A program made the translations under genes and the position numbers. Positions 1 through 11,024 of a stretch of 11,024 bases of DNA are shown piece after piece. The notes under the pieces are model-generated. The model worked only from the letters and a program-made list of their open reading frames with translations, searched no databases and was not told where the DNA came from. Numbering within the stretch: the first letter of the stretch is position 1; each line of letters starts with the position of its first letter. Source of the DNA: an uncultured archaeon (GTDB taxonomy: Archaea; Asgardarchaeota; Heimdallarchaeia; Heimdallarchaeales; Heimdallarchaeaceae); contig CAZJUB010000087.1 of the NCBI GenBank assembly GCA_964549075.1, positions 1 through 11,024 of the forward strand, in the 5' to 3' direction.

Positions 1-409
1 CAATAGCTTTCTAAATAAAAGATTCTACCGGAACATCAGCTCCAATATCAAATACTTCAAATCCCTCTGAAGATAGCATTGAAGCGACTAATGTTTTTCC
101 TATGTCGTGAATATCTCCCTCTATAGTACCTATGACAACTTTACCAAGAAACCTCTCTTCTTTACCTTCCTGAAGCAGTGGGTGAATTATGGTCATAGCA
201 GCTTTCATCGCTTCAGCACTACGCATAAGTTCTGGTAGAAAGAATTCTCCTTCTTCAAACAAGTCACCTGCTTCTCGTATAGCTAAAGAAAATGAGTCGA
301 TAGCTTCATTGACTTCCATTTTTCCATTAACTACTTTTCTCGCTAAATTTTCTGCTAACTCGATATTCCCATCTAAAATTGCTTTTTTACATTCATCACT
401 GAAAGTCAT
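1..409 (-). CDS. Corrinoid (B12-binding) protein, MtaC/MttC-like; in-frame TAG at 11-13, frame continues off the window edge (readthrough or pseudogene)
   Basis: Four-helix cap (FFLPELMRSAEAMK) followed by the B12 motif GTIEGDIHDIGKTLV...GFEVFDIGADVP. AGGAG upstream of the ATG. The domain is incomplete at the TAG, and the frame reads ESFI*KAI, matching the usual 'F(I/V)EKA' continuation. Confidence 0.88.
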
Positions 410-474
410 TTATATCTCCTACAACGATATTTTACAATTAGTGAGAAAGATTAATTGTTAATTAGACTTTCCCC

Positions 475-858
475 TTATTCATGGCAAATTTTTATTGTCC
501 AATCGATTAACGGTTGAAGTGCTTTTGAAAGTTCCTCCCCTTTAGTTGAAAGAGAATATTCAACTTTTGGAGGGATTTCTGCGTGAATATCTCTGATGAG
601 TAAACCTTCTTTGTGTAATTCAGTTAAACGAGCTGAAAGAGTTGCATCACTAATTTTATCCCTCTTCCAACCTTTATGAAGTAATTCTCGAAGCTCATTA
701 TACCTTACTTTCTTACCATCACTTAGAACATTAATTAGTTGGATACTCCATTTTTTACCTACAAGATTCAAAATTTTTTGTGCTGGAATGAAACATGGAT
801 ATCCATTTTTCTCATGAGAACATTTGACGATTGAAGGGTACTCGTTTATTTTACTCAC
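475..858 (-). CDS. HxlR/MarR-DUF24 winged-helix transcriptional regulator
   Basis: LVGKKWSIQLI, VRYNEL, ISDATLSARLTEL...GLLIR...EIPPKVEYSLSTKGEEL..L..W are HxlR hallmarks. GTG start; two N-terminal Cys. Confidence 0.93.
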   Translation of the reverse strand: MSKINEYPSIVKCSHEKNGYPCFIPAQKILNLVGKKWSIQLINVLSDGKKVRYNELRELLHKGWKRDKISDATLSARLTELHKEGLLIRDIHAEIPPKVEYSLSTKGEELSKALQPLIDWTIKICHE

Positions 859-904
859 ATTACTTCACTTCTTCAAAGTTACTTAAAATTTATTTAGAAA
901 GACC

Positions 905-957
905 TTATATATAAATACTTTCATATCTAAAGTAATAACACTTTGATAACTAAAGTG
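905..957 (+). promoter_or_regulatory. TATA box plus two tandem palindromic operators (YACTTT-N7-AAAGTR) between the divergent hxlR-like gene and a micro-ORF
   Basis: TTATATA at 905-911; TACTTTcatatctAAAGTA at 916-934; CACTTTgataactAAAGTG at 939-957. Confidence 0.7.
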
Positions 958-968
958 AGGTAGTGACA

Positions 969-1121
969 ATGAACAAAGATTGTAAAGGAAAACACCATAA
1001 CTGTGGAGAATTCAAAGGAAATGAAACTAAAGAGGAAAAACTCCAACATTTAACAGATTGTAAAGCAAAACTACAAGATCAGATAAAGAAAATCGATAAA
1101 GCTATTGCTGAATTAGAATAA
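969..1121 (+). CDS. 50-aa Cys/His-containing coiled-coil micro-protein (resembles DUF5320-type proteins)
   Basis: Manual translation MNKDCKGKHHNCGEFKGNETKEEKLQHLTDCKAKLQDQIKKIDKAIAELE. GAGGT/GTGA SD-like motif upstream; TAA TAG followed by a T-run. Not in the ORF track. Confidence 0.75.
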   Translation: MNKDCKGKHHNCGEFKGNETKEEKLQHLTDCKAKLQDQIKKIDKAIAELE

Positions 1122-1128
1122 TAGTTTT

Positions 1129-1581
1129 TCATTCTTTGTTTGGAAAATACTTGCATAATTCCCAAAATGGAGGAACTAATTCTAAATCTACCAAGATATC
1201 TACAAGACAGAAAGCACCCCATTAATTAATGACCTTACCTTCTTGATCGACTTCAAGGATTGCCATACCGTCAACTTCTGTCTCTTTATTGGTCGGTTCA
1301 AATCCCCAGGCACTACCTCCATGTCGCATTTTTGCAGTATATCTTACCCAAACCTTTGTCTTATCAGCAATTAGATCTTCTACTGAATATCTTAGATCAT
1401 GAAAAGCTGATCTAAAATATTTTATCTCATGAATAACAAGTTCTGGTCCTTGTTTAGGTATTCCAATATAATCTGGTTTGAAGTCAGGATGAATTAATTG
1501 ATAAGCTAAGTCAAAATCTGGTCTACTCCACATCTCCTCAAACCAACGTCTTCCAATCTCCTTGTTTCTTTCTACTGACAT
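1129..1581 (-). CDS. SnoaL-like ester cyclase (NTF2-like) protein with in-frame TAA at 1222-1224 (readthrough or pseudogene)
   Basis: MSVERNKEIGRRWFEEMW...FRSAFHDLRYSVEDLIADKTKVWVRYT...H.G...GFEPTNK. After GKVIN* the frame continues WGAFCLVDILVDLELVPPFWELCKYFPNKE to TGA at 1129-1131, completing the expected last strand and helix. Confidence 0.85.
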
Positions 1582-1615
1582 AGATAGAAAGTTCTTGGGA
1601 CTTTAATAATTCTTT

Positions 1616-2581
1616 CTAGAAAAGAAGTAAACTTAATACTCGCTGTTTTGCTTCCAAATATTTGTCCTCTTGATTAGATTCACTGAAAAATCCTGCCGCT
1701 GACATTCCTATATATATTTTATAGCATAATAGTCTCTTCTCATAGTTTTCAAAATCTAATAATTCTGAATCTTTAAATTTCTCACAATATAATTTTGAGT
1801 AATTATCTTCATCTCTAAAACCCCAGAAATCTAACCAAGCTATGTCATAAACAAAGTCTCCGTAGATAGAGTGTTCCCAATCAAAAACTGCTGTTATTTT
1901 GCCTTCTGTATCTGCTAAAACATTATCAAAGCCAAAATCACCATGAACTAGATAACGTTTAAAGGAACAAAATTTGATTAATTCTTGTATTTTTTTTACC
2001 CCTTCATTATATAACTCAAGCTCAAAAATTCCAGAAGAAAATCTTTCATTTGTATAGATTTTTTCTTTTTCCAACCTCTCTAAAATGTACTCTTGCATGG
2101 TTTTGTATTTGCCTTTTTTCCATATTTCCCAGTATCCATAACCTCGTGTATCTGAAATTTTAGTTGTATGGATTAAATATAGCATCTCCACAAGAGATTC
2201 ATCTACTACCTTCAGCTTATCTTCTGGAAAGAGGTGAACAAAAGAGCCATTGATGTTTTCCACTATACTGTAAATAAATTTGTTTCTTTTATATTCTTTA
2301 AAGATACCCTGTTCAATTGTTTTTGGAATGGGAATCTTAGGATTTCTTTTTTTCAAAATTTCATAAATAAAAATTTCTTTCACAAAAGGATTTGTTTTTC
2401 TAAACCTTTTCTTGACTTTTCTGATTTTGATGACATATTTTTGATCTTTGTTCTCAAAAGAGAAAGCTTGAGATATTTCTCCTCCTTTAAGAATTTCAAT
2501 GTTTTTAATGCCTGAACTGAATTTTTGAGTTAGAAATTCTTCTATCTCAGATATACTAATTCTAGTTTTCAGTAAAGACAC
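1616..2581 (-). CDS. Aminoglycoside phosphotransferase (APH/choline kinase-like) family protein
   Basis: GGEISQAF loop, YVIKI lysine, Brenner motif LVHGDFGFDNV, AVFDWE..IYGD..YDIA. Start more likely the GTG at 2581, with a TATA-like TTATAT about 25 nt upstream, than the ATG at 2698. Confidence 0.88.
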   Translation of the reverse strand: MSLLKTRISISEIEEFLTQKFSSGIKNIEILKGGEISQAFSFENKDQKYVIKIRKVKKRFRKTNPFVKEIFIYEILKKRNPKIPIPKTIEQGIFKEYKRNKFIYSIVENINGSFVHLFPEDKLKVVDESLVEMLYLIHTTKISDTRGYGYWEIWKKGKYKTMQEYILERLEKEKIYTNERFSSGIFELELYNEGVKKIQELIKFCSFKRYLVHGDFGFDNVLADTEGKITAVFDWEHSIYGDFVYDIAWLDFWGFRDEDNYSKLYCEKFKDSELLDFENYEKRLLCYKIYIGMSAAGFFSESNQEDKYLEAKQRVLSLLLF

Positions 2582-2657
2582 AAATCTTGAGTAAACAGCT
2601 GTTGATATAACTCTTTTGCTCTCGATATTGGAATGCAATCTGTTTGGTATGTATAGC

Positions 2658-2684
2658 AAAGAGAAAGAACTGTTCTTACTCTTT
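2658..2684. terminator. Inverted repeat, possible terminator or operator
   Basis: AAAGAG-A-AAGAAC-T-GTTCTT-A-CTCTTT, just downstream of the MBL gene stop. Confidence 0.35.
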
Positions 2685-2691
2685 TTTCTTT

Positions 2692-3582
2692 CTAGCATTC
2701 AAATGTTAAAGTATCTCCCACTCGAAACTTCTTTACGATTTCTTTACCAAAATACGCTGTCATGAAATCAATAGCTTTCAATCCTGTACAATGACTAAAG
2801 TAAAGTTGAGGTTTGTTGTATTTTGTTTCAAGTTGATTCGCAACATATCTGAGATCTTCTTCATCAGTAAAAGCGACTAGATGAGTTCCTCCTATAATCT
2901 TTTTGATTTCTTTATCAGGATAAATCTCTTTAGCTCGGGCACAAATATTAAGAACACCTGCGTGACCACATCCTAATATAAGAACCAAACCATCTTTTGT
3001 TTTAAGAATTAGTGATAGATCATCTAGAAGATCATCGTGAACAAATTTACCTTCAAGTTCAATTGTTAAGCTATCTATTTTGCAAGGTTTTTCTTTCCAT
3101 TCATTTATTTCACCTGTCGTGGTTAGTATAGGTGTAATTTGGTAAGGCTCAATAATTTTAATTATCTCAAGTTTTTCCATAATCTCTTGCGATAATGTAG
3201 GAAAACCAAGATTGTACCATCTATATTTGAGATAAGTTGTTAATCTGCGAAAAGGATTTTTTACCCTTCTTCTGGTAAATACATTGGGATGACCAATTAA
3301 CTTTAAGGTTGGTGCATCATCCCTACTTTGCATTAAAGCTTCGATTCCAAATGTGTGATCCCAATGTCCATGACTAAAAATAACCATATCAATGCTCTTC
3401 GGATTAATTCCTAAAATTTGCATGTTATTAAGTAGAATTATTCCTTGATCTCCTGTATCAAATAAGATTCTCTTATTGTCTATTTCTATCAAATAACATA
3501 AACCATCAGAAGAAATAAACTCTCTATCTGGTCGAACATATTTATCAACAATGTTGGTGAGTTTAACTTCCATTAAAATCAT
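2692..3582 (-). CDS. MBL-fold metallo-hydrolase, COG1237 (MJ0301-like dihydropterin-RFA-P synthase family)
   Basis: ILFDTG, SHGHWDH, DDLSLI, GCGHAG, IIGGTHL, SHCTG motifs. Start may be the ATG at 3573. Confidence 0.9.
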   Translation of the reverse strand: MILMEVKLTNIVDKYVRPDREFISSDGLCYLIEIDNKRILFDTGDQGIILLNNMQILGINPKSIDMVIFSHGHWDHTFGIEALMQSRDDAPTLKLIGHPNVFTRRRVKNPFRRLTTYLKYRWYNLGFPTLSQEIMEKLEIIKIIEPYQITPILTTTGEINEWKEKPCKIDSLTIELEGKFVHDDLLDDLSLILKTKDGLVLILGCGHAGVLNICARAKEIYPDKEIKKIIGGTHLVAFTDEEDLRYVANQLETKYNKPQLYFSHCTGLKAIDFMTAYFGKEIVKKFRVGDTLTFEC

Positions 3583-5780: not shown

Positions 5781-5893
5781 ATCATCATATTTATAACACT
5801 GCATTAATTATAATTCATCTCTTTTTGTATTAACTACATTTAGTAAGCGTAAAGGTTATATTTCATAAATTTTATCTTTTTTTTAGTGATAAT

Positions 5894-6070
5894 ATGGTAG
5901 TTCAAAGACCAGATGCATTTATCTGCAATAACTGTGGACATCGTTTTAATAATGAAGAGAAAAAAACCTTAAAAGAGGAAGTAGATGGGATATTTACTAC
6001 AAAAACAGTATGCCCTAAGTGTTTATCTCCTGATATCAGAACTACAATAACAGGTCATAGGGACGAGTAA
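5894..6070 (+). CDS. 58-aa zinc-ribbon micro-protein
   Basis: MVVQRPDAFICNNCGHRFNNEEKKTLKEEVDGIFTTKTVCPKCLSPDIRTTITGHRDE: CxxC...CPxC. Confidence 0.8.
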   Translation: MVVQRPDAFICNNCGHRFNNEEKKTLKEEVDGIFTTKTVCPKCLSPDIRTTITGHRDE

Positions 6071-6146
6071 CAATCGTTTTTTTGTATTACTGGGGTAGTC
6101 TCTTTATCATACTTACTCTATAAAAAACTTTGACTATCTTTATTTC

Positions 6147-6320
6147 ATGCAACCTGAGAATCTAGTTGATGAGATGAACCGTATCCTAGTAAAAATGGAT
6201 AAAGAATTACATAGTTTGAATAGAGAGTTGGATAAAATACTGAAGAAATACCCAAAATATATGGAAGAGGATGAAATTCGACTCAAATATGCAATGTATA
6301 AATACAATCATGGTAAATAG
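6147..6320 (+). CDS. Small helical hypothetical protein (57 aa to TAG; 87 codons to TAA at 6408-6410 if read through)
   Basis: MQPENLVDEMNRILVKMDKELHSLNRELDKILKKYPKYMEEDEIRLKYAMYKYNHGK*IAILSSRAKLRDFRGIIDLINSIFAEESF. Confidence 0.6.
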   Translation: MQPENLVDEMNRILVKMDKELHSLNRELDKILKKYPKYMEEDEIRLKYAMYKYNHGK

Positions 6321-6454
6321 ATCGCTATTCTATCCTCTAGGGCAAAATTAAGGGATTTTAGGGGAATAATCGACTTAATAAACTCTATATTTGCTGAGGA
6401 ATCATTTTAAATGTCATATCTATTTTATAATAAGAAAAAGAAGGATTGCTGAAG

Positions 6455-7483
6455 ATGAAAGAAATCAGAATAAATTTTCCTGCAGAAAAACTGGAAATTG
6501 TACAAGAATTGTTTGAAAGGTTAGGGTATGATTTCACTCTCTCTATATTCGAAAAAACTGTTACAATGACAATTGATGTTAAGAATGAACATACTTCAAC
6601 AATCCTGGAAGAATTGAAAGGTATAGGTGTTGGAACAATTTTTGGAAAAATAATTGTCTCTCCTGTAGCTTTAGAGATTACTTCAAAGAAGACGGAACCA
6701 ATTGTTAAAGATAGAGGAATTAGTATCGATGAAATGATTTCCAATATTAAACATCTCTCTCTAATAAATACAACTTTCATCGGATTAATTATATTAGCTG
6801 GAATTTTAGCTTCATTTGGGTTAATTTATGATAACGTTGTTATTATAATTGCTAGCATGATTATTGCTCCACTTTTGGGACCTATTGCTCTTGCAGTTAT
6901 TGGTACTATGACACCAAAGAATATCTACACAAAACGCGCAATAACAGCTGAAGTAGTAGGCTTATTTTTAATTATTCTAATTGGATTTTTAGTGGGTATT
7001 ATCTATAGATTCACTGCTCCTGAACAAATCATAAATGAAGGTGAAATTATGAGCCAACAGATTTCGTCAAGAATTAAACCTACCATAGGTGATATTGCTT
7101 TCGCGATTGCTAGTGGTTTAGCAGCAGGAGTATTTATTATCAGAGGTGAAAGTACTTCTATTGTAGGAGTTGCAGTAGCAGCGTCACTGTGTCCTCCAGC
7201 AGCTAATGTAGGAGTATTATTAGCAACAACAGGTACAATTGGAGAAGCGTTTGGTTCACTAATCTTGTTAGTGCTAAATGTTTTAGCTATTTATGCATCT
7301 TGCGCTCTTATCTTTTGGACATCACAGTCCTTTGTTAGAGGTGGAACAGTCTCTACTAGACAATTTAAAAGAATTAGTAGAAAATATATTATCCAAATAG
7401 CGCTGACCTTTTTCGTTTTAGCAACCATCATCACACTAATAGTGTTAGATAATATTTACAATTTTATTCAAATCAAAGTATGA
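6455..7483 (+). CDS. TIGR00341/DUF389 family membrane protein with N-terminal soluble domain
   Basis: ASFGLIYDNVVIIIASMIIAPLLGPI, AIASGLAAG, VGVAVAASLCPPA, NVLAI motifs. Start at ATG 6455 or TTG 6446. Confidence 0.9.
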   Translation: MKEIRINFPAEKLEIVQELFERLGYDFTLSIFEKTVTMTIDVKNEHTSTILEELKGIGVGTIFGKIIVSPVALEITSKKTEPIVKDRGISIDEMISNIKHLSLINTTFIGLIILAGILASFGLIYDNVVIIIASMIIAPLLGPIALAVIGTMTPKNIYTKRAITAEVVGLFLIILIGFLVGIIYRFTAPEQIINEGEIMSQQISSRIKPTIGDIAFAIASGLAAGVFIIRGESTSIVGVAVAASLCPPAANVGVLLATTGTIGEAFGSLILLVLNVLAIYASCALIFWTSQSFVRGGTVSTRQFKRISRKYIIQIALTFFVLATIITLIVLDNIYNFIQIKV

Positions 7484-7509
7484 ACCAGATGAAATAGTAC
7501 ATAAATTAG

Positions 7510-7686
7510 TTATCTAAAGTGTTCAATCATTGATTTCATAACCATTTTTACAGCATATTGAGCTTCCTCATTTAAGTCCTTAAAACCTTTACCGCAACTT
7601 GGGCAAGGTTCATAACCTTCAGGATCGCTTTTACTAAATTTAAATCCACAATGGAAGCAATATACTTTGTTTGGTAATTCATTCAT
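7510..7686 (-). CDS. 58-aa CPxCG-type zinc-finger micro-protein
   Basis: MNELPNKVYCFHCGFKFSKSDPEGYEPCPSCGKGFKDLNEEAQYAVKMVMKSMIEHFR. Confidence 0.8.
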   Translation of the reverse strand: MNELPNKVYCFHCGFKFSKSDPEGYEPCPSCGKGFKDLNEEAQYAVKMVMKSMIEHFR

Positions 7687-7800
7687 TTAAATCAAAAATA
7701 TGTAAGGATTTAATCCAAATAAACCTTTTTGAGAAAATCATATATTGGTAAAGTATTCAAGTCTAGACTGTATTGTTTCCTTTAGAATCTTTTCTCTTTC

Positions 7801-8841
7801 TTATCTCCAATACCTTGGATCCCCTATTCCTAAATACCAGTAACAATAACCTCCTACGGGATATTTGTTTATAGCATCCTCTTTTTTTTGTGTTGATATA
7901 TAATCTTGAAAAACTGCAAACCAAGTTACATCGCTTTCATCCTTGTAAATAAAAAATAATTCCTTTGAATCCGAGTATCTGTCTGTTTTTACTCCATAAG
8001 AATCCACTAGGTTTTTGAAATAGTAGTATCCGCCTGATAAAGCTGCTTCACCATTATCTGGCCAATTATAGCCATATAGAGGAATACCACAGTAGATTTT
8101 TTCGTAAGGAATTGTTTTTGTTGCATAATTCAAGACATTTCTTATCCAGCTTATTGGAGATATCTGTCCTGGATTACTATATGAGTAATCATATGTCATT
8201 ATCATCACATAATCACAAATTTCCCCAATTGTTGTATAATCAAAAGCTCCTCCCCATCCTATTGTCCAATCAGCTGATTTTGCTGGTACATCTATTGATA
8301 TGATATATTCAGATCCTAACGAATCTTTAACATCTCTCAGAAATTCATTAAATACTGCTCTATCTCTTGCTGGAACTCCTTCAAAATCTAGGTTTATTCC
8401 CGTACAATTGTAAAGATTAAGCAGAAAAATAGCTGATTCAATAAAATTACTTACACTTGTTTCATTATTAATTATTATAGATATAAGTTCTGAACTAAAA
8501 AATTCATCATAATTTGATACTAAGGGATGAACTTTAATACCTTTACTCCTACAAAAATCAAATACTTCATTTGGTGAAACATCTAAATTCCAATATTCAT
8601 CAGTCATCGTTCCATTTGGCAAAACTCTCCACCATGAAGGTGAAATCATATCGATTTCATCTGCGGAATCTATCAATCTTGCGTATGATGCATTGTTCCA
8701 AGTACTGAACCAAAAAAAATTCTTCTTGATTGGATACTCCACATTGAAATAAGGACTGAAATAGAAGTATAAACCTATACCCGTACCTATCATGCCTAGA
8801 ATGATTATTCCTGCGATTAGTCTGATATAAATAGATTTCAC
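7801..8841 (-). CDS. Membrane-anchored glycoside hydrolase family 18 protein (YaaH/YdhD/chitinase-like)
   Basis: N-terminal TM helix; ISPSW, GINLDFE catalytic motif, IMTYDY, PGQISPISW, GIPLYGYNW, WYLGIGD. Confidence 0.9.
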   Translation of the reverse strand: MKSIYIRLIAGIIILGMIGTGIGLYFYFSPYFNVEYPIKKNFFWFSTWNNASYARLIDSADEIDMISPSWWRVLPNGTMTDEYWNLDVSPNEVFDFCRSKGIKVHPLVSNYDEFFSSELISIIINNETSVSNFIESAIFLLNLYNCTGINLDFEGVPARDRAVFNEFLRDVKDSLGSEYIISIDVPAKSADWTIGWGGAFDYTTIGEICDYVMIMTYDYSYSNPGQISPISWIRNVLNYATKTIPYEKIYCGIPLYGYNWPDNGEAALSGGYYYFKNLVDSYGVKTDRYSDSKELFFIYKDESDVTWFAVFQDYISTQKKEDAINKYPVGGYCYWYLGIGDPRYWR

Positions 8842-8925
8842 AATCTATATTTCCTCTTCCCTTTTTGAAGTTAATCCCTCAATATACTAAAGATTTATTA
8901 TTCTCTCTGTGATGAAAAACTTACT

Positions 8926-10851
8926 ATGAATTCAGTAGAAAAAATGTGCGAAAAGTATACTGTAGAAAATGCTATAGAACACGGGAAAGCAGCAGTAGGT
9001 CCTGTTATGGGGCTTGTGTTTAAAGCTGATCCTGAATTGAGAAAAGATGCAAAAAACATCAAGAAAATCGTCGAAAAAAAAGTTGACTATATCAATTCAT
9101 TAAAAGCTGAAGAAATACAACAACTCGCACAGAAACAATTCCCAGAACTACTTCGAGAAAGAGAAGAAGAAGTACAGGAGGAAGCTGATTTCATAAGAGA
9201 GATTATAGAAGAACATAATCGAACCGGTAGATTTGGAGGAAAAGTGCATACTCGCTTCCCTCCTGAACCGAATGGTCTGCTACACATAGGTCACGCTTAT
9301 TCTATAGATCGTCAATACTATCTAACTATGGAGTATAAAGGAAAATTCAATCTAAGATTCGATGACACAAATCCAATAACTGAAGAAGAGGAATTTGTCG
9401 ACGAAATAATTAGAGATGTCAAGTGGTTAGGTGCTGATTTTGAAGATAGACTTTTCTTTGCTTCTGATTATTTTGAGCAGTTTTACGAATACGCGGTCCA
9501 GCTAGTTAAGAAAGGCTTAGCTTATGTTGACGATTCAACAGTTGAAGAAATTCGTGAAATGAGAGGAACAATAAATGAACCTGGAAAAGAAAGTCCATTT
9601 AGGAATCGATCAATTGAAGAAAACTTGAATCTATTCACAAAGATGAGAAATGGAGAATTTGCGGATGGAGAGAAAGTTCTTCGAGCGAAAATAGATATGG
9701 CACATCCTAATATGCTAATGAGAGACCCGATTGTATATAGAATTCTTCACGCTAAACATCATAGATCAGGAGATAAGTGGTGTATATATCCGATGTACGA
9801 CTGGGCACATGGATTGGAAGATTCGATTGAAGGTATAACACAATCAATTTGTACCCTTGAATTCGAAGTTCATAGACCTTTATATGACTGGTATATTGAC
9901 CAATTAGAGGATGAAGATGGTAATCCGATACACCATTCGCAGCAGATAGAGTTTGCTAGAATGAACCTTACTTATATGGTTGCAAGTAAAAGAAAACTTC
10001 GAATGCATGTAGAGGAAGGTTATGTTACTGGATGGGATGATCCAAGATTGTTAACTATTGCTGGAATGAGAAGAAGAGGAATCACACCTGAAGCTATCCG
10101 AAATTTTGCTATAGCTATACCTTTCACCAAACGAGACAAAATTATTGATATCTCTACCTTTGAATATTATGTCAGAGAAGATTTGGATAAACGATGTCCT
10201 AGAGTAATGAGTGTTATTGATCCTCTCAAAGTGGTTATAACTAATTATCCAGAGGATTTAACTGATGAGTTCGAAATAGCCAATCATCCTATGAATAAAG
10301 AAATGGGTACTAGAAAAGTCAAATTCACTAAGAATCTTTACATTGAAAAAGAGGATTTTATGGAAAATCCACCTGAGGATTATTACAGACTTTCAGTAGG
10401 AAAGGAAGTAAGATTGAAATATGCTTATTTCATAAAATGTGAAAAAATTGTAAAGGATGAGAAGACTGGAGTGATAAAAGAAATCCATTGTACCTATGAT
10501 CCAGAAACCAAAGGAGGAGAATCTCCTGATGGAAGAAAAGTACAAGGTACTATTCATTGGATATCAGCTGATAATGCTTTGGAAGTTGAAGTTAGACAAT
10601 ATGACAGGCTTTATACAAAAGAAAATCCAATGGAAGCGGAAGAAGGTAAAGATTTCAGAGATTATATCAATCCAGATTCAATTAAAATTATGAAATCTTA
10701 TGCAGAACCTTTTCTCAAAAATAAGGAACGTGGATCAAGATTCCAGTTCGAAAGAGAAGGATATTATGTAATCGATATAGTAGATTCTACCAAAGAAAAT
10801 CCTATATTTAACAGAATCATTACACTAAGAGATTCTTGGGGAAAGAAATAG
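8926..10851 (+). CDS. glnS: Glutamine--tRNA ligase with an N-terminal archaeal-GluRS-like helical domain
   Basis: From about aa 88 it is collinear with bacterial GlnRS: FIREII, VHTRFPPEPNGLLHIGH, LRFDDTNP, RAKIDM, WCIYPMYDWAH, SICTLEF, QIEFAR, SKRKL, GWDDPR, EVRLKYAY, GTIHWIS, FQFEREGY, FNRIITLRDSW. Confidence 0.96.
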   Translation: MNSVEKMCEKYTVENAIEHGKAAVGPVMGLVFKADPELRKDAKNIKKIVEKKVDYINSLKAEEIQQLAQKQFPELLREREEEVQEEADFIREIIEEHNRTGRFGGKVHTRFPPEPNGLLHIGHAYSIDRQYYLTMEYKGKFNLRFDDTNPITEEEEFVDEIIRDVKWLGADFEDRLFFASDYFEQFYEYAVQLVKKGLAYVDDSTVEEIREMRGTINEPGKESPFRNRSIEENLNLFTKMRNGEFADGEKVLRAKIDMAHPNMLMRDPIVYRILHAKHHRSGDKWCIYPMYDWAHGLEDSIEGITQSICTLEFEVHRPLYDWYIDQLEDEDGNPIHHSQQIEFARMNLTYMVASKRKLRMHVEEGYVTGWDDPRLLTIAGMRRRGITPEAIRNFAIAIPFTKRDKIIDISTFEYYVREDLDKRCPRVMSVIDPLKVVITNYPEDLTDEFEIANHPMNKEMGTRKVKFTKNLYIEKEDFMENPPEDYYRLSVGKEVRLKYAYFIKCEKIVKDEKTGVIKEIHCTYDPETKGGESPDGRKVQGTIHWISADNALEVEVRQYDRLYTKENPMEAEEGKDFRDYINPDSIKIMKSYAEPFLKNKERGSRFQFEREGYYVIDIVDSTKENPIFNRIITLRDSWGKK

Positions 10852-10919
10852 CCTCTCTTTAGAAAAATTTAAAATAAAATGAAGAAATCAACGGTTGTCA
10901 AAGAAGTTTGGCAATCTAT

Positions 10920-11024
10920 AGTCCCATGGTGTAGCCTGGAAACATTCCAGACTTTGAAGAAAGTCATCCAGATGCCTTTTGAAGTCATCTGGCGCCGGGA
11001 GTTCAAATCTCCCTGGGACTACCA
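10920..11024 (+). tRNA. tRNA-Gln (UUG) with a 29-nt intron at 37/38 (10958-10986) and encoded CCA
   Basis: Acceptor AGTCCCA/TGGGACT, D stem GTGT/ACAT, anticodon stem CCAGA/TCTGG with loop CT-TTG-A|A, T arm GGGAG-TTCAAAT-CTCCC, then ACCA. Bulge-helix-bulge at the intron ends; 76 nt when spliced. Confidence 0.95.

Follow-up and report, generated by a model that had tools for sequence, protein, structure and literature searches.

According to the passages of two 2022 reviews that treat tRNA-Gln, archaea have no glutaminyl-tRNA synthetase (GlnRS), since archaeal tRNA-Gln, with its A73 and A1:U72, is unusable by bacterial or eukaryotic GlnRS (PMC9499178, PMC8762117). The nearest described enzymes to the one reported here are bacterial GlnRS, eukaryotic GlnRS, archaeal glutamyl-tRNA synthetase (GluRS) of the non-discriminating kind, and the GlnRS of Deinococcus, in which, as the excerpt of PMC1865053 concerned has it, a C-terminal YqeY domain raises the affinity for tRNA-Gln in cis. 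In its section on the subject, PMC2978374 names residues 1-85 of the M. thermautotrophicus GluRS a disordered N-terminal YQEY domain, and describes an unpairing loop and a G36-recognition loop that are found in GlnRS and missing from archaeal GluRS. Here we describe a glnS gene and the tRNA-Gln(UUG) gene that follows it, on a contig of 11,024 nt (the window, by which we mean the whole stretch analyzed) from an uncultured member of the Heimdallarchaeaceae. We think it likely that this locus encodes a working, glutamine-specific GlnRS of bacterial type that was acquired horizontally by Heimdallarchaeia, bears the YqeY-type N-terminal domain of a GluRS, and lies beside the native tRNA-Gln, with the direct and indirect routes to Gln-tRNA(Gln) coexisting. 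The locus consists of the following features.

8926..10851, + strand: glnS, coding for a 641-residue glutaminyl-tRNA synthetase, stop codon included (ATG-start open reading frame; Pfam and NCBIfam)
8926..9180, + strand: N-terminal helper domain, residues ~1-85, YqeY-type as judged by homology to the archaeal GluRS N-terminus
9181..10848, + strand: bacterial-type GlnRS body (Rossmann catalytic fold, acceptor-binding insertion, two beta-barrel anticodon-binding domains)
10852..10919, + strand: AT-rich spacer of 68 nt from glnS to the tRNA gene, read from the sequence
10920..10957, + strand: exon 1 of tRNA-Gln(UUG), positions 1-37 (ARAGORN with the intron option)
10958..10986, + strand: tRNA-Gln intron of 29 nt at 37/38 (ARAGORN; drawable as hBHBh')
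10987..11024, + strand: exon 2 of tRNA-Gln(UUG), with A73 and an encoded CCA (ARAGORN); the contig ends at 11024

The 641-residue protein contains the Pfam tRNA-synt_1c catalytic domain and two anticodon-binding domains, and the NCBIfam model glnS (TIGR00440) matches it at 676.1 bits (cut-off 425.8, E 3.9e-203) over its full profile, 1-524 of 524. The archaeal gltX model (TIGR00463) gives 377.1 bits, under its cut-off of 401.75, as against 416.2 bits for the true GluRS of the same genome. The protein is 52% identical to E. coli GlnRS over its residues 87-640 and 54-61% identical to the GlnRS of 78 named bacterial loci from many phyla. Scores against structures in the Protein Data Bank (PDB) follow the same order: 651 bits for 5BNZ, 639 for E. 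coli GlnRS, 488 for 2HZ7, 378 for 4YE6, 370 for 4H3S, and 222 for the archaeal GluRS 3AII, the eukaryotic GlnRS structures spanning 367-378 bits vs. 639-651 for the bacterial ones. Pfam finds no match in the protein to the eukaryotic GlnRS N-terminal domains PF04558 and PF04557. The HIGH motif occurs as LHIGH at residues 119-123, and VASKRK aligns to the E. coli VMSKRK, M268 (E. coli numbering, used hereafter) being replaced by Ala. Across an alignment of 23 Heimdall GlnRS from families f1, the window's own, and f7 (F1+F7), 12 from family f5 (F5), and 77 bacterial GlnRS, residues R30, Y211, C229, Q255, R341, R402, Q517, R520, the HIGH histidines (H40, H43), and K270 are invariant in all 112 sequences; in E. 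coli GlnRS, R30, Y211, C229, and Q255 belong to the glutamine-selecting pocket. The unpairing loop (residues 132-141 of the E. coli enzyme) and the G36 loop (residues 392-407, with R402 kept) both align to E. coli without gaps. Asp235 is changed to Val and Leu136 to Ile, at two sites where bacteria vary as well. By the curated model and the specificity residues, the predicted enzyme is a GlnRS, and the locus is real and conserved and probably functions in direct glutaminylation. The preliminary description of this DNA, made from the letters alone, had read here a full-length GlnRS gene with the motifs YD, SICTLEF, QIEF, PRVM, YRL, and QFERE; all six are in the translation, the first and third within PMYD and QQIEF, and the NCBIfam score and specificity residues bear the reading out. 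It had also named clustering with archaeal GluRS over the whole length as an outcome that would refute it; the archaeal part is the first ~85 residues only.

These first residues set the protein apart from bacterial GlnRS. Residues 1-95 match the N-terminus of the genome's own GluRS at 31% identity over 94 residues (BLASTP, E 8e-14), and a hidden Markov model (HMM) of the N-domain, built from the 23 F1+F7 sequences, recognizes the N-terminal part in 26 of the 31 Heimdallarchaeial GluRS (E 3e-25 to 5e-5) and gives no match in 90 bacterial or F5 GlnRS. AlphaFold2 models the domain as five helices, with a predicted local distance difference test score (pLDDT) of 89.3. Its identity to Heimdall GluRS N-domains is 23-41%, compared with 27-38% between the GluRS of different families; for the bodies, identity is 31-34% between GlnRS and GluRS and 37-44% between the GluRS of different families. 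In each of the two enzymes the N-domain is the faster-evolving part. Since the GlnRS N-domains are as similar to GluRS N-domains as the latter are to each other, despite this faster evolution, capture of a GluRS N-domain inside Heimdallarchaeia fits better than inheritance from the original GluRS/GlnRS split. The protein is a chimera of an archaeal GluRS-type N-domain and a bacterial-type GlnRS body. A kinship of the N-domain with the N-terminus of a eukaryote-type GlnRS (L269) was considered and dropped, there being no similarity (profile comparison probability 0.2%). A protein-database search with residues 1-95 returned 16 Heimdall GlnRS only, from 152 word-sharing candidates, and is uninformative on GluRS.

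By analogy with the C-terminal YqeY domain of Deinococcus GlnRS, the N-domain probably raises the affinity of the enzyme for archaeal tRNA. In public records these proteins are annotated as "glutamine--tRNA ligase/YqeY domain fusion protein". The Deinococcus-type GlnRS/YqeY model NF011291 scores 806.7 (cut-off 681) and is matched over positions 7-558 of 769; its C-terminal YqeY part (559-769) is unmatched, and the window protein ends at the GlnRS body. Because the YqeY part of the annotating model is the part left unmatched, the public name appears to be correct only by accident.

The tRNA-Gln(UUG) gene at 10920-11024 was found by ARAGORN with introns allowed; default ARAGORN and Rfam at the gathering threshold called no tRNA there, because of the intron. 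The tRNA has A1:U72, G2:C71, U3:A70, G10, A73, and an encoded CCA, and it includes both A1:U72 and A73, which the relevant part of PMC9499178 gives for archaeal tRNA-Gln. A bulge-helix-bulge (BHB) can be drawn with standard pairs only, from a 5-bp anticodon stem, a 4-bp central helix (C-G, U-A, U-A, U-G), and a 5-bp inner helix, with the splice sites held in two 3-nt bulges and an energy of -24.6 kcal/mol; unconstrained folding returns no BHB and has its energy minimum, -40.9 kcal/mol, in another structure. The orthologous tRNA of most relatives has no 37/38 intron, and intron presence and position vary within a single genus. The window copy is the only tRNA-Gln(UUG) detected in the genome, whose single tRNA-Gln(CUG) lies right at the beginning of contig C58. 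The intron, drawable as an archaeal BHB, and the A1:U72 pair reported earlier are confirmed, as is the distance of 68 nt between the glnS stop codon, ending at 10851, and the tRNA, starting at 10920.

The pairing of synthetase and tRNA recurs among relatives. In 13 of 14 related loci, tRNA-Gln(UUG) lies directly downstream of glnS; nine of the 13 are called whole by ARAGORN, including the intron-bearing copy of the window, and four (L005, L006, L010, L011; no ARAGORN call) match only to position 59, which indicates a putative non-canonical intron in the T-loop. Thirteen genomes of the window's genus have the CUG gene 0.9-5.5 kb further downstream on the same contig, and because this distance varies so much in one genus, the stretch between the two genes appears to hold variable inserted DNA (G001, G010, G013, and others). 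In the sister genus g13 (two closed genomes) both tRNA-Gln genes are ~13.6 kb from glnS, and relative G008 has the CUG tRNA neighborhood with no glnS within 12 kb. The view that synthetase and tRNA form a linked unit thus holds for most of the related loci and is not universal.

All tRNA-Gln seen keep A1:U72, except the CUG copy of G052 (G1·U72) and two mis-delimited ARAGORN calls. The discriminator base varies more. The UUG tRNA keeps A73 in F1, in F7, and in family f4, which lacks GlnRS; the CUG tRNA of the window's genus has G73 in eight genomes and A73 in nine; and in family f5 (loci L098-L116) G73 is the discriminator of every tRNA-Gln gene next to glnS (11 of 12 loci), often without an encoded CCA. 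G73 is the discriminator of bacterial GlnRS, as stated in the passage of PMC9499178 on identity elements. This pattern hints at co-adaptation of the tRNA; as it comes effectively from two lineages, it is a lead and not a statistic. Between tRNA-Gln(UUG) and tRNA-Gln(CUG), G052 has a third tRNA-like gene (L198:2229-2302) with an A1-A72 mismatch, U37, and the anticodon UUA, by which the stop codon UAA would be read. Homologues occur in three genomes of the window's genus (L007 c[1168,1242], L010 c[1132,1206], and L013 c[1165,1239]), with the anticodon loop UUUAGG of 6 nt (or 8 nt in another register). This gene may represent a copy of tRNA-Gln in decay, or else a tRNA of suppressor type; it was not found in the assembled genome of the window.

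The components of the indirect route are present in the same genome, which encodes an archaeal GluRS (416.2 bits, contig C5), GatD (489.3 bits), and GatE (382.8 bits), the latter two as intact open frames above curated cut-offs on contig C3. Of the 83 genomes of the class, 78 have GatD, 78 have GatE, and 61 have a GluRS that scores above its cut-off; of the 41 genomes with GlnRS, GatD is matched in 40 and GatE in 39. Because the genome keeps archaeal GluRS, GatD, and GatE, the direct route, as far as gene content tells, is an addition to the indirect route and not a replacement for it. The direct-charging module announced in the preliminary description therefore stands as to the GlnRS gene and falls as to any replacement: the search of the genome for gltX, gatD, and gatE found all three. 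GatE of the window's family is markedly divergent (G000:C3:61210-64454), the f1 copies scoring 375-410 bits vs. 532-650 for the higher-scoring copies (f3, f4, f7, half of f5, and one f2 copy); GatE of G040 and G037 scores lower, and the other half of f5 reaches only 333-352 bits. Two GatD/GatE pairs occur in family f7, of which one is divergent and the other canonical, and in families f3 and f4 there is an additional GatD-like gene of shorter length. An archaeal-type GluRS at E <= 1e-60 was not found in the f5 genomes G056, G058, G059, G061, G065, G075, G062, and G064; some of these are >90% complete, and a different GluRS may be used there.

GlnRS above the curated cut-off is present in 41 of the 400 Asgard genomes surveyed (33 families) and is confined to three families of Heimdallarchaeia: f1 (20 of 30, plus the genome of the window), f5 (12 of 22), and f7 (9 of 12). 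None of the other 30 Asgard families sampled has it above the cut-off. In the window's genus the full gene is present in 15 of 25 genomes, three more have fragments at contig ends, and in a further two the tRNAs stand at the end of a contig, at the place expected for glnS. The f5 enzyme, of ~580 residues, does not have the N-domain.

Trees rooted with GluRS were computed with FastTree (121 rows) and in a short IQ-TREE search (65 rows), and in both the two Heimdall clades fell inside a bacterial clade with support 96, a clade that excludes E. coli and two Bacillota. A longer search (LG+F+G4, 63 rows, including 15 GlnRS from viral contigs) reached a best log-likelihood (lnL) of -41534.6; ultrafast bootstrap was unconverged in three runs, and we use the best tree so far, with supports from the Shimodaira-Hasegawa-like approximate likelihood ratio test (SH-aLRT). 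In this tree the eukaryote-type proxies stand next to the outgroup and F5 stands beside an Anaerolineales sequence (SH-aLRT 85). The proxies are sequences from viral contigs, not from cellular eukaryotes, and only L269-L271 carry the eukaryotic N-domain; L269 has PF04558 and its best score to human GlnRS. L276 and L262 proved to be ambiguous or of bacterial type. Viral contigs hold several kinds of GlnRS, and many contigs of 100-500 kb carry a short bacterial-type GlnRS; in L261, a 257-kb viral contig, the tblastn match starts at query residue 6 and the extracted frame begins near the catalytic core. Approximately unbiased (AU) tests on rearrangements of the longer-search tree rejected the placement of F1+F7 with the eukaryote-type pair (p-AU 1.4e-5) and with all six divergent viral sequences (p-AU 0.0046). 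They did not reject F1+F7 as sister to all bacterial-type sequences (p-AU 0.445, at a cost of 3.1 lnL), nor the two Heimdall clades joined at the basal place (p-AU 0.068) or at the nested place (p-AU 0.135). Because the AU tests reject a place beside the eukaryote-type proxies, the enzyme is, on phylogenetic grounds, of bacterial type and not eukaryote-like, and because its archaeal distribution is narrow, import from Bacteria is the more likely direction of transfer. The preliminary description had given an origin of GlnRS on the eukaryotic line as background; this enzyme has a bacterial-type body, and its sister placement to eukaryote-type GlnRS is rejected. The suggested phylogeny of the synthetases settles the bacterial type, and a place either inside or at the base of bacterial GlnRS would agree with it.

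The gene, its domains and conserved residues, the synteny, the distribution, and the co-occurrence with GluRS and GatDE are observed here. With the activity of the enzyme, the N-domain's role, and the transfer direction as inferences, we propose that a bacterial-type GlnRS entered Heimdallarchaeia by horizontal transfer and gained, in the lineage of this genome, the N-terminal YqeY-type domain of an archaeal GluRS. The splicing endonuclease would excise the tRNA-Gln intron; GlnRS would then read U35 and G36 while its unpairing loop separates the weak A1:U72 pair in the manner of E. coli GlnRS; and glutamine would be attached directly to tRNA-Gln. The archaeal GluRS and GatDE route is retained, giving two routes to Gln-tRNA(Gln) side by side.

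Several points weigh against this proposal or parts of it. The sections of PMC9499178 and PMC8762117 on the subject hold that archaeal tRNA-Gln (A73, A1:U72) is a poor substrate for bacterial GlnRS, and no RNA runs holding this stretch are listed. Replacement of Asp235 was rejected as an archaeal adaptation, V, I, or A being found there in 26 of the 77 bacteria too. The retention of GatDE shows that the direct route is insufficient or non-exclusive. Pfam, at E up to 10, links the N-domain neither to YqeY (PF09424) nor to the tail of GatB (PF02637) and yields no credible family, and Foldseek against the PDB gives nothing at E <= 0.001. VIA-align, with 40 chains at Z >= 5, stays at background level, a wide search giving Z of 6.5 or less; the similarities to residues 119-182 of human GlnRS (Z 5.4) and to residues 97-148 of B. 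subtilis YqeY (1NG6, Z 5.0) belong to that background. The putative YqeY assignment of the domain is one of archaeal GluRS homology and of the name given in one paper. As to the trees, one in which all 41 bacteria form one clade is 95 lnL better than the short search (p-AU 0.987, not rejected), the nesting inside bacteria from the short search being an artefact of that search; and in the longer-search tree the F1+F7 clade stands near the base of the bacterial-type clade. One or two acquisitions would both be compatible with the AU tests, as would either direction of transfer for F1+F7.

The basal position invites a different history, in which all bacterial-type GlnRS have the YqeY-GlnRS of F1/F7 as their sister or stem, bacteria received GlnRS from this archaeal or proto-eukaryotic lineage, and the N-domain was inherited from a GluRS ancestor. 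Direct glutaminylation would then have spread to Bacteria from the Heimdall/proto-eukaryotic lineage, and the locus would be a preserved intermediate with a GluRS N-terminal domain, beside its tRNA substrates. The place of F1+F7 in the best LG+F+G4 tree, the small cost of the sister placement, and the better likelihood when the 41 bacteria are held together all fit such a history, as does an alignment of the protein with archaeal GluRS that starts from residue 1 and runs at a uniform ~30% identity. We nevertheless judge it unlikely: GlnRS is in only three of the 33 Asgard families sampled, the N-domain is up to 41% identical to Heimdall GluRS N-domains though faster-evolving, which fits later capture, F5 without the domain nests beside the Anaerolineales sequence, a nested position joined with F5 is not rejected, and the long outgroup branch may attract the Heimdall branch. 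It is a little harder still to credit, and we regard as quite improbable, that Gln-tRNA(Gln) is now made in this family mainly or solely by way of GlnRS, with GatDE and the non-discriminating GluRS as relics or in other roles. The divergence of the family's own GatE and the clustering of both tRNA-Gln genes with glnS in the genus would agree with this, but GatD and GatE are intact, above their cut-offs, and kept in nearly all GlnRS-positive genomes, and all tRNA-Gln, the exceptions above aside, keep A1:U72, which we take to be the GatDE identity pair.

It is very unlikely that the enzyme charges glutamate in vivo, is inactive, or serves mainly an unusual tRNA such as the UUA-anticodon tRNA-like gene of relatives. 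E. coli GlnRS does accept suppressor anticodons, and in four relatives the odd tRNA-like genes lie between both tRNA-Gln genes; yet every glutamine-selecting residue is invariant, the protein is 63-83% identical across three archaeal families, indicating purifying selection, and the window's assembled genome lacks the odd tRNA. Finally, the window is the entire contig C87 of a metagenome-assembled genome (MAG) of 3.23 Mb in 217 contigs, 89.7% complete and with 3.4% estimated contamination, and a contig so short (11 kb) that ends at a tRNA could in principle be bacterial and misbinned, or chimeric at the glnS-tRNA junction. The chance of this is negligible. The window is collinear with G001:C13 (query 1-3574 and 5845-11024, 73-75% nucleotide identity) and with contigs of four further genomes of the same genus, so that collinearity is near full-length with contigs of five genomes; an independent public contig of 2,747 nt covers 10273-11024 with 0 differences, bridging the junction, and extends ~2 kb beyond. 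Four closed single-contig genomes (G054, G055, G064, G066) carry glnS, the GC content of the contig (32.0%) equals that of the genome (32.4%), the tRNA intron is of archaeal type, and the enzyme has an archaeal GluRS N-domain. Introns are predicted in 13 of the 36 tRNA calls of the genome, a few such calls being dubious. Because the contig is collinear with those of the genus and its junction is bridged by a public contig with 0 differences, misbinning and chimerism are excluded for practical purposes; the doubt raised earlier about a bacterial or chimeric contig is removed, and the guess that the organism might be an Asgard archaeon was sound, its closest homologues bearing the names Candidatus Heimdallarchaeaceae, Heimdallarchaeota, or Asgard group.

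In three runs, the T-arm of the tRNA up to 11014 recurs in another contig, which then diverges (window 11014-11024). A repeat common to another tRNA probably explains why the contig ends at tRNA-Gln, and contig C58, which starts 3 nt before tRNA-Gln(CUG), is probably the downstream neighbor of the window contig. At the other end, window positions 11-409 (- strand) encode a corrinoid-binding protein of the methyltransferase-cognate type, whose final two-thirds are lost at the contig start. The window's other genes are unremarkable, coding for an HxlR regulator, a SnoaL-like protein, an APH-type kinase, an MBL-fold hydrolase, DUF1295 and DUF389 proteins, and a GH18 protein.

A literature search on GlnRS in Heimdallarchaeota, Asgard archaea, or archaea, which did not cover subscription papers and supplements, found no study of these genes. 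The portion of preprint 10.1101/2024.07.04.601786 concerned names GlnRS in passing as a cox-gene neighbor in Hodarchaeales and Kariarchaeaceae, and the statement in PMC8879553 asserts, in the passage concerned, a transfer of GlnRS from Eukarya to Archaea with no detail. Public records already carry a GlnRS annotation for the genes, which are effectively unstudied. What is new is the domain make-up of a known enzyme, met in a domain of life where it was not expected. The locus contradicts the textbook statement that archaea have no GlnRS, and together with its relatives it is a natural counter-example in the archaeal class closest to eukaryotes. It suggests two ways in which the barrier may have been crossed, by adding a tRNA-binding helper domain of the host GluRS to the imported enzyme (F1, F7) or by changing the tRNA discriminator to G73 (F5). 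The co-occurrence of GlnRS and GatDE makes the coexistence and displacement of direct and indirect glutaminylation, a long-standing question, directly testable. The interest is tempered by the existing public annotation and by the enzyme not being the ancestor-like form hoped for in the preliminary description.

Compared with known systems, the window protein most resembles bacterial GlnRS (E. coli GlnS 1QTQ/1GTR and P. aeruginosa 5BNZ), with which it has in common a five-domain body at 52% identity, HIGH/KMSKS-type motifs, the glutamine-selecting residues, the unpairing loop, and the anticodon-reading arginines. It differs from them in its added N-terminal domain of ~85 residues, derived from archaeal GluRS, and in its archaeal host; its presumed substrate has A1:U72, U3:A70, and A73, whereas E. 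coli tRNA-Gln has U1:A72, G3:C70, and G73. With the archaeal non-discriminating GluRS (M. thermautotrophicus, 3AII) it shares the N-terminal YqeY-type domain and the overall architecture, the alignment starting from residue 3, but its body is only ~30% identical, carries the unpairing and G36 loops found only in GlnRS, and has the residues that select glutamine. Eukaryotic GlnRS (human 4YE6, yeast 4H3S) combines direct glutaminylation with an appended N-terminal helical tRNA-binding region, as we propose for the window protein, which scores only 370-378 bits against these structures, is without PF04558/PF04557, and is rejected as sister to the eukaryote-type proxies. Like the GlnRS of Deinococcus radiodurans (2HZ7), finally, it would be a GlnRS joined in cis to a YqeY-type domain; with a score of 488 bits to 2HZ7, it carries that domain at the N-terminus and not the C-terminus, with ~85 residues and not 215, and derived from an archaeal GluRS.

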